From UHGV virus genome UHGV-0176440: 11,560 nucleotides of DNA; one strand, written 5' to 3'. The translations under genes and the position numbers were made by a program. The stretch's first letter is position 1. Each line of letters starts with the position of its first letter. The notes under the pieces are model-generated. The model made no database searches and was not told where the DNA came from. It saw only the letters and a program-made list of their open reading frames with translations. Source of the stretch: a virus. Shown here one piece after another: positions 9,991 to 10,183 of the stretch.

Positions 9991-10019
9991 TTGACATCAC
10001 TGTGATGGTTGTTTAAGAT
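9991..10019 (+). promoter_or_regulatory. Candidate sigma70 promoter (-35 TTGACA, 17-bp spacer, -10 TAAGAT)
   Basis: TTGACA 9991-9996, TAAGAT 10014-10019. Spacer contains the palindrome ATCAC-T-GTGAT, a possible operator. Confidence 0.45.
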
Positions 10020-10026
10020 GCAACTG

Positions 10027-10183
10027 TACAGACACCTTCATCGGTTTCTCTACGCCTCCTTATAGTCTGGCGGGGTAGGGTATGGCTTGGTCAGGTGGGG
10101 TAAAGTATGGTTAGGTATGGGTGGATTGTCGTAGCCACGTTAAAAATCGACTTGTAAAGGGACTCTTTCGGGAGTCCTTTTTA
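10027..10183 (+). ncRNA. Candidate small RNA (about 155 nt) bounded by a promoter and a Rho-independent terminator; G-rich with repeated GGGGTA/GTATGG motifs
   Basis: Promoter at 9991-10019 and terminator at 10156-10183 with no ORF over 16 codons between; internal repeats GGGGTAGGGTATGG / GGTGGGGTAAAGTATGG / GGTATGGGTGG. Confidence 0.35.
10156..10183 (+). terminator. Rho-independent terminator (plus strand)
   Basis: GGACTC-tttcgg-GAGTCC stem (10160-10165 / 10172-10177), extendable by A-U pairs, followed by TTTTT (10178-10182). Confidence 0.6.

Follow-up and report, generated by a model that had tools for sequence, protein, structure and literature searches.

A promoter-to-terminator unit on the plus strand of the virus genome UHGV-0176440 is, with a probability of about 85%, the gene of a VIPR guide RNA (vrRNA) carried by a phage satellite. 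The window, by which we mean the whole stretch of 11,560 nucleotides analysed (positions 1-11560), represents one mobile island of about 11 kb, a phage satellite of E. coli. Our reading is based on the anatomy of the unit, its homology to units of other elements, the covariation of its 3′ tail, the absence of a vipr gene from the island and the matches of its variable positions to target DNA.

VIPR systems were described in a preprint (bioRxiv 10.64898/2026.04.26.720920, June 2026). According to its available text, they consist of the RAMP protein Vipr and a small accessory gene, vap, and are served by vrRNAs of about 100 nt, in which 9-16 YNNGG repeats are combined with a tail that does not vary and that forms a pseudoknot in the SUSP1 clade. 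[quoted passage not shown] For SUSP1, experiments show that the RNA-protein complex forms, that the skip rule applies and that transcription is repressed; the vrRNA co-purifies with Vipr, and the ribonucleoprotein and its binding to and repression of double-stranded DNA are reported for the SUSP1 and P. fulva systems. VIPR is presented as RNA-guided DNA recognition by a gapped code and is proposed to pre-date CRISPR. In the SUSP1 clade, 18 of the 20 guides having natural targets are directed at an E. coli satellite with phage-like tape measure (26% identity) and baseplate (72% identity) genes, and some satellites of SUSP1-like phages encode vrRNAs of their own, aimed at sister satellites (10.64898/2026.04.26.720920). 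Elements of this kind, including their presence on these satellites, are thus already described, and the locus in the window is a clean example of them.

The unit is composed of the following features:
9991-9996, plus strand: −35 hexamer TTGACA, found by consensus scan and kept in related islands, with TTGA(T/C)G as second allele
10014-10019, plus strand: −10 hexamer TAAGAT after a 17-nt spacer, found by consensus scan; both promoter alleles keep the spacing across 10 islands
near 10026, plus strand: predicted transcription start
10026-10063, plus strand: 5′ leader CTGTACAGACACCTTCATCGGTTTCTCTACGCCTCCTTAT, 38 nt, nearly invariant in 9 of 10 islands
10064-10118, plus strand: GGY/NN repeat tract of 11 pentamers, from the in-register count and the position-weight matrix of the homologues
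10119-10152, plus strand: 3′ tail, an H-type pseudoknot, from covariation over 22 distinct tails
10121-10124 with 10135-10138, plus strand: stem 1 of the tail, GTGG with CCAC, from covariation
10128-10131 with 10148-10151, plus strand: stem 2 of the tail, GTCG with CGAC, from covariation; loop 3 is GTTAAAAAT
10156-10185, plus strand: intrinsic terminator AAAGGGACTC-TTTC-GGGAGTCCTTTT plus T-run, found by scan and kept in 9 of 10 islands

The original prediction, made from the letters of the window, was that the unit is a separate gene for a non-coding RNA, bracketed by a promoter and a terminator of its own; this was right. The promoter TTGACA-17-TAAGAT is present at 9991-10019 and matches ten of twelve consensus positions. 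Twenty-four promoter-like sites were found in the window against 29.5 expected, so that a bare consensus match is not above chance; the promoter of the unit, with its 17-nt spacing, is kept in ten related islands as one of the two alleles TTGACA-17-TAAGAT and TTGA(T/C)G-17-TATAAT. The stem of the terminator (10156-10181) has 11 pairs and is followed by the T-run. Between promoter and terminator the longest ORF has 16 codons, which agrees with the claim that no meaningful ORF is present, and ARAGORN found no tRNA or tmRNA. Conservation in related elements, on which the prediction had made its own standing depend, was also found, as the unit is conserved across related islands. From the promoter and terminator conserved across the islands, expression of a small RNA of about 100 nt would be expected. 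Since published vrRNAs are about 100 nt long and the span from promoter to terminator is about 158 nt, the leader (10026-10063) may be trimmed, giving a mature RNA without it.

The repeat tract is organised in a single register over 10064-10118, with the pentamers AGTCT GGCGG GGTAG GGTAT GGCTT GGTCA GGTGG GGTAA AGTAT GGTTA GGTAT. The guide dinucleotides are therefore CT GG AG AT TT CA GG AA AT TA AT, of which the last two (TA, AT) are common to most sister islands. In the 60-nt stretch 10064-10123, which includes the first pentamer of the tail (GGGTG), ten of the twelve pentamers begin with GG. At least ten in-phase GG were reached by none of 200,000 composition-preserving shuffles of this stretch, and elsewhere in the window, on both strands, no stretch has more than four. 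A position-weight matrix of 824 pentamers from 65 distinct homologous units has G in 77% at position 1, and never C; G in 98% at position 2; and T in 89% or C in 10% at position 3, and never A. Positions 4 and 5 are free. The profile is partly built in by the detection rule, which demanded G at position 2 together with either G at position 1 or T at position 3; this rule does not account for the lack of C at position 1 or of A at position 3. The tract in the window thus has the repeat pattern of vrRNAs, about 9-16 tandem YNNGG with GGY conserved and NN hypervariable. The GTATGG copies (10080, 10105, 10115) and GGGGTA copies (10072, 10097) of the original prediction are present, and are fragments of this stricter 5-nt-register pattern, which it had missed. 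The proposed link to GTATGGG..TGG strings at 8838-8860 proved wrong, as no 5-nt register exists there; the G-richness of these strings comes from period-3 GGN glycine codons of a small ORF (..VWAGGGVGLLAG..), a homologue of which is annotated by RefSeq in island L149.

This 58-aa ORF (MVNLPPELGSPDVWAGGGVGLLAGLLLRYVLVRVLVVFKLF..., 8808-8984, plus strand) encodes one hydrophobic, glycine-rich segment, and its codon-based G-richness is unrelated to the vrRNA. It has a strong promoter-like site upstream (8597-8626) and a terminator-like hairpin downstream (8999-9022), and its homologue is annotated by RefSeq in some islands.

Homologues of the repeat tract and tail are present in phages. Positions 10061-10151 match 94 phage records at 75-80% identity, all of them Ounavirinae (Felixounavirus, Suspvirus), and no match to this stretch was found in the plasmid collection. 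The homologous DNA in Ounavirinae is organised as tandem units of about 125-145 nt, each with a G-U-rich hairpin, 9-21 GGTNN pentamers and a conserved tail. Felixounavirus and Suspvirus phages possess four to five copies of these units, flanking a 195-aa protein with a Cas7/Csm3-like RAMP fold, so that the homologous helper loci show the adjacency to a vipr (RAMP) gene. In the genome of wV8 we found exactly four arrays, all oriented like the early genes around them; one pair is located between the DNA ligase gene and gp096, the other between gp095 and gp094. They are co-oriented with, and flank, the two genes between the DNA ligase gene and gp094. The search of the whole window against Rfam (4227 covariance models) gave no match at gathering thresholds, and at permissive thresholds positions 8500-10560 gave only chance-level matches (E at least 0.8). 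The Felix O1 genome paper lists other repeats and not GGYNN arrays, and searches of the literature on non-coding RNA, repeats or satellites of Felix O1 and Felixounavirus gave nothing on GGYNN arrays. The remaining part of the ORF-free region (8500-10060) resembles no phage record.

A scan of IMG/VR for eight consecutive GGYNN pentamers revealed, among the matches listed, many unrelated viral contigs with a GC content from 30% to 71%; arrays among these listed matches often have a promoter before and a hairpin after them. In the IMG/VR contigs L029-L108 the arrays are GGC-rich in high-GC genomes and often several per locus. They reach 142 pentamers in L050 (6301-7010) and 57 in L106 (875-2430), well above the 9-16 of SUSP1-type vrRNAs, and L033 (around 1618, reverse strand) possesses a clean promoter-array-terminator unit. 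The long GGYNN arrays may be the "staggered/overlapping" arrays of the preprint.

The 3′ tail (10119-10152) has the structure expected of a vrRNA of the SUSP1 clade, a pseudoknot. Twenty-two distinct tails were aligned without gaps and two crossing helices were tested. Both-sided changes occur at nine of the eleven tail pairs, and 90.9% of the cells are paired; sliding the partners by one to three columns lowers this to 28-40%, and no shuffle matched the observed covariation score. Stem 1 occurs as GTGG/CCAC, GTAG/CTAC and AAGG/CCTT, and stem 2 as GTCG/CGAC, GGTAG/CTACC, GGCAG/CTGCC, AGTCTCA/TGAGACT and AATCGGA/T(C/T)CGATT. The alternation of G-C and G-U in stem 2 and the G-U-rich hairpins fit an RNA of the window's strand. 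The tail of the window agrees with that of helper phages in 31 of 36 positions, and where stem 2 differs the changes are compensated; the tail of island L005 is identical to the helper tail type GGGTGG...CCAC. Minimum-free-energy folding of the whole transcript was uninformative (z = −1.2), as the structure that matters here is a pseudoknot and the repeats are expected to be covered by protein. The original prediction had named structure and covariance in homologues as a check and had overlooked the pseudoknot, which the homologous tails reveal.

These features also bear on whether the unit acts as DNA, forming a G-quadruplex or an R-loop and used as a replication origin in common with the helper. 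The non-template strand is indeed G-rich downstream of a promoter, and the helper arrays lie within the replication-gene cluster. However, position 3 of the pentamer is always a pyrimidine (Y99 in the matrix) position 1 is G in only 77%, and the 5-nt register is strict over up to 21 repeats; a G4 or R-loop would require none of these features. Moreover, the covariation of the tail pseudoknot includes G-C to G-U changes, which are compatible with pairing only in RNA of this strand, and the unit is ended by a terminator. A function at the DNA level is for these reasons barely credible, and candidates such as a G-quadruplex, an R-loop origin or a pac site were dropped.

The island that carries the putative vrRNA gene encodes the following main features:
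173-1816: large serine recombinase (integrase)
1813-2622: Dit-like baseplate protein, 74% amino-acid identity to wV8, with stretches at 95% nucleotide identity
2758-4926: tape measure protein, 33% amino-acid identity to wV8
8510-10555: ORF-free region of 2 kb
10555-11130, plus strand: small serine recombinase

The window also possesses several small ORFs, including one for an HNH protein. With an integrase, few helper-like structural genes and no complete set for virion or replication, it has the gene content of a phage satellite, and it fits the SUSP1 satellite of the VIPR preprint. In E. coli 2013C-3492 the same gene set makes up an island of about 11 kb, flanked by wrbA and ymdF, and related islands were found at the same wrbA-ymdF site, at tonB-yciI, at lpxL-mdtG and inside yecE. 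The control region of the window is matched in 555 of the 5426 complete E. coli genomes (about 10%).

The search with a Vipr-family profile could not detect a vipr gene in the six-frame translation of the window (best E = 1.6), and nothing was found in ten other islands; the same profile scores 1e-84 on wV8 and SUSP2. In agreement with this, tblastn of the window ORFs against wV8 retrieved only the tape measure and baseplate genes. The usual position of a vrRNA gene, next to a vipr gene and mostly with vap, is thus not found in the window. We regard the RNA as an orphan member of the class, since the preprint itself reports satellite-borne vrRNAs (10.64898/2026.04.26.720920). The ORFs beside the RNA were considered as a divergent Vipr, and gave no BLASTP match to the two wV8 genes. 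For the 185-aa ORF, AlphaFold predicted an all-helical model with a pLDDT of 44, too poor for a fold search.

The 185-aa protein (7953-8510, minus strand), which borders the ORF-free region, has no known domain and more than 1000 close homologues in E. coli, Shigella, Salmonella and E. albertii. On the other side, the small serine recombinase, of the resolvase/invertase type with an HTH, is encoded on the plus strand in the window, L028, L149 and L153, and on the minus strand in L150-L152. In L150, L151 and L152, the DNA at about 12400-12955 is not alignable with positions 10362-11192 of the window; the recombinase region of these three islands could be an alternative cassette or an invertible segment. 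The ORF-free region itself possesses a 48-nt direct repeat (9105-9152 and 9200-9247, 95-nt spacing), and copies resembling the vrRNA leader (..ACAGA..CCTTC..GGTTTC) at 9401-9421 and 9765-9785, the copy in the leader being at 10028-10048. The copy at 9765 can form a hairpin, the arms of which differ compensatingly in L028. A box GGGAGAGA..GTGACC..CCCCT is repeated upstream of the promoter (9485-9524 and 9936-9975). These repeated modules could be further small RNAs or operator sites.

Each of the eleven islands possesses exactly one vrRNA gene, with a different guide in each. Promoter, leader, last repeats, tail and terminator are conserved between the islands, and the NN positions are hypervariable within flanks that are 90-100% identical; the last two to three repeats and the tail are invariant. 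The search for DNA matching the guide of the window covered the eleven islands, one full helper genome and IMG/VR, and a better or different target may exist elsewhere. [quoted passage not shown]
L154, 10019-10043: predicted target site, sequence nCTnGGnAGnATnTTnCAnGGnAA

In both L005 and L154 the predicted target lies about 220-245 nt upstream of the island's own vrRNA array, in an imperfectly palindromic stretch of the ORF-free control region. None of 300 shuffled-order guides reached a run of eight in the 409 kb searched, and other skip rules gave runs of at most six. The last three dinucleotides (AT TA AT) are unmatched at this site, so that the full length matches at 18 of 22 positions (82%), just above the 80% cut-off of the preprint. 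The target region is present in 113 of the 5426 complete E. coli genomes. No self-target was found in the window within three mismatches, and the stretch of the window homologous to the target differs at NN positions. As known for vrRNAs, the NN positions therefore match natural DNA under the 1-nt skip and spare the element that encodes them. The exact search of IMG/VR with a 10-NN target pattern found none, and the 8-NN pattern retrieved L005 and 13 unrelated contigs, consistent with chance.

The original prediction had suggested that the G-rich repeats are protein-binding or sponge-like sites. The first part stood, because GGY is the triplet held by Vipr in the published system; the second found no support. 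The hypervariability of NN between islands, together with the 16/16 match to a rival island under the 1-nt skip, is how a guide would behave and not a sponge. A generic regulatory small RNA or sponge, similar to CsrB or TRAP-binding RNA, would titrate a host RNA-binding protein. TRAP sites are spaced by 5 nt, and the unit resembles them in repeating a triplet every 5 nt; it is also a promoter-terminator unit lacking an ORF, as a sponge could be. Nonetheless, the triplet is GGY, whereas CsrA sites have GGA and TRAP sites (G/U)AG; no Rfam family matches, and the variable positions match DNA of a sister element sequence-specifically. In addition, this class of RNA flanks a RAMP protein in the helpers and co-purifies with it (10.64898/2026.04.26.720920). 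A sponge for a host protein is accordingly very improbable. Sponges of CsrA or Hfq, of tRNA CCA ends or of the anti-Shine-Dalgarno, as well as clusters of primase sites, were dropped as candidates.

The window is itself matched by guides of other elements. The NN strings of 55 helper-phage units and ten island guides were tested on it. With a 1-nt skip, 13 guide-site pairs have at least seven consecutive matched NN, with a maximum of ten; no pair has at least seven with skips of 0, 2 or 3. Twelve guides reach the 80% of matched NN positions used in the preprint, compared to 0-2 shuffled guides. The vrRNAs of helper phages (Felixounavirus and Suspvirus contigs) match the window at six sites, with 7-10 consecutive NN:
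3659-3687, minus strand: helper-guide site, 1-nt skip match
5277-5305, minus strand: helper-guide site, 1-nt skip match
6668-6696, minus strand: helper-guide site, 1-nt skip match
2647-2669, minus strand: helper-guide site, 1-nt skip match
6196-6218, plus strand: helper-guide site, 1-nt skip match
8199-8218, minus strand: helper-guide site, 1-nt skip match, in the 185-aa ORF

The six sites fall in the tape measure gene, the 3′ end of a 236-aa ORF, a 107-aa ORF, the 185-aa ORF and two intergenic stretches. In two of the four coding matches, the skipped base is the third position of the codon. A further site is matched by the guide of another island:
9970-9989, minus strand: predicted target of the guide of L153 (NZ_AP027197), not part of the RNA; the first seven NN match at 14 of 14 positions

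This site directly abuts the −35 box of the vrRNA gene in the window. The match is statistically weaker, as its run length was equalled by one of 300 shuffled-order guides. L153 itself, which has the alternative promoter allele, and the other islands with this allele are not matched at this site, which suggests that satellites may silence each other's guide genes.

The helper guides directed at the window would also give the satellite a motive to carry a decoy, that is, an orphan vrRNA that soaks up the Vipr of the helper or competes for its assembly and for which the content of the guide is secondary. Such an RNA would dilute the guides of the helper. The parts that bind Vipr, the GGY repeats and the tail, are present and the vipr gene is absent, and the last two to three repeats and the tail do not vary among islands, as would be expected of a decoy. 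However, the NN positions are hypervariable in an otherwise nearly identical context, and a run of 16/16 on a sister lineage, longer than in 300 of 300 shuffles, would be needless for a pure decoy. The variability and the matches argue that targeting is selected. An RNA acting chiefly as a decoy is thus improbable, and both roles could coexist.

Under the guide RNA reading, the host RNA polymerase would transcribe the unit from the sigma-70 promoter and stop at the intrinsic terminator, producing an RNA with the leader, eleven GGY/NN repeats and the pseudoknot tail. Because no vipr gene is present in the island, the RNA would be active only with the Vipr of a helper, supplied when a Felixounavirus or Suspvirus infects the cell. 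Loading onto this Vipr is predicted from the similarity of the satellite tail to the helper tail; it is nearly identical to one helper tail type, and would be close enough to be accepted. Vipr subunits would then coat the tract, and the complex would bind double-stranded DNA, reading it as xNNxNN..., and block transcription. Bound to the ORF-free control region of a rival satellite, it would block transcription there. The likely role of the RNA is consequently the silencing of a competitor for the same helper.

Among known systems, the RNA of the window is most similar to the vrRNAs of the SUSP1 clade (type II). It shares with them the GGY/NN repeats (11 here, 9-16 there), the hypervariable NN, the invariant pseudoknot 3′ tail and the targets with 1-nt skip, and it is located in a satellite targeted by SUSP1-clade guides, as are the satellite-borne vrRNAs of the preprint. 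In contrast to SUSP1-clade vrRNAs, it is an orphan with no vipr or vap gene in the island, and its last two to three repeats are shared among islands and unmatched at the predicted target. It is furthermore a single gene with its own sigma-70 promoter, 38-nt leader and terminator, whereas the SUSP1 vrRNA is an array unit inside an operon. Class 1 CRISPR also places a guide, the crRNA, on a Cas7 (RAMP) backbone, but the window has neither a repeat-spacer array nor adaptation genes. A crRNA pairs over a contiguous stretch with a disruption at each sixth position (summarised in 10.64898/2026.04.26.720920), whereas the pairing of vrRNA is non-contiguous, with two bases paired and three guide bases held by protein per repeat and one target base skipped. 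ToxI-type RNAs of type III toxin-antitoxin systems are similar in being tandem RNA units with pseudoknots, and TRAP-binding (G/U)AG repeats in having a triplet motif with a 5-nt period. However, they differ in the size of the unit, the motif and the partner, and the window has no toxin gene. With the RAMP partner and the DNA targets established, a type III antitoxin and a site for a TRAP-like ring protein were dropped. More generally, the candidates other than VIPR were abandoned on account of the G/G/Y conservation, the register of exactly 5 nt, a pseudoknot that is strand-specific, the RAMP partner and the matches to target DNA. Orphan mini-CRISPR arrays on viruses likewise provide a guide only, aimed at related viruses, with the effector encoded elsewhere. 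RNA class and effector are different from those in the window, where the effector is proposed to come from the helper phage and not from the host.

The window contributes the exact coordinates and structure of the unit, the absence of vipr from eleven islands, the two promoter alleles, the invariance of the last repeats, and guide-target pairs between satellite lineages, one of them on a vrRNA promoter. The available text of the preprint is silent on the source of Vipr for satellite vrRNAs and on a decoy effect (10.64898/2026.04.26.720920). Tentatively, and with somewhat less than even odds, the orphan vrRNA might be a hijacking device, which silences rival satellites including their vrRNA genes, and at the same time competes with the anti-satellite guides of the helper for Vipr. 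If this is true, it would be an RNA-only counter-defence nested in a conflict of phage, satellite and satellite. For annotation, units of this kind in E. coli islands, which have "G-rich repeats" and lack ORFs, are best labelled as vrRNA genes. The window represents a compact natural example of VIPR from the satellite's side of the conflict, and offers directly testable guide-target pairs for guide borrowing and for competition between satellites.
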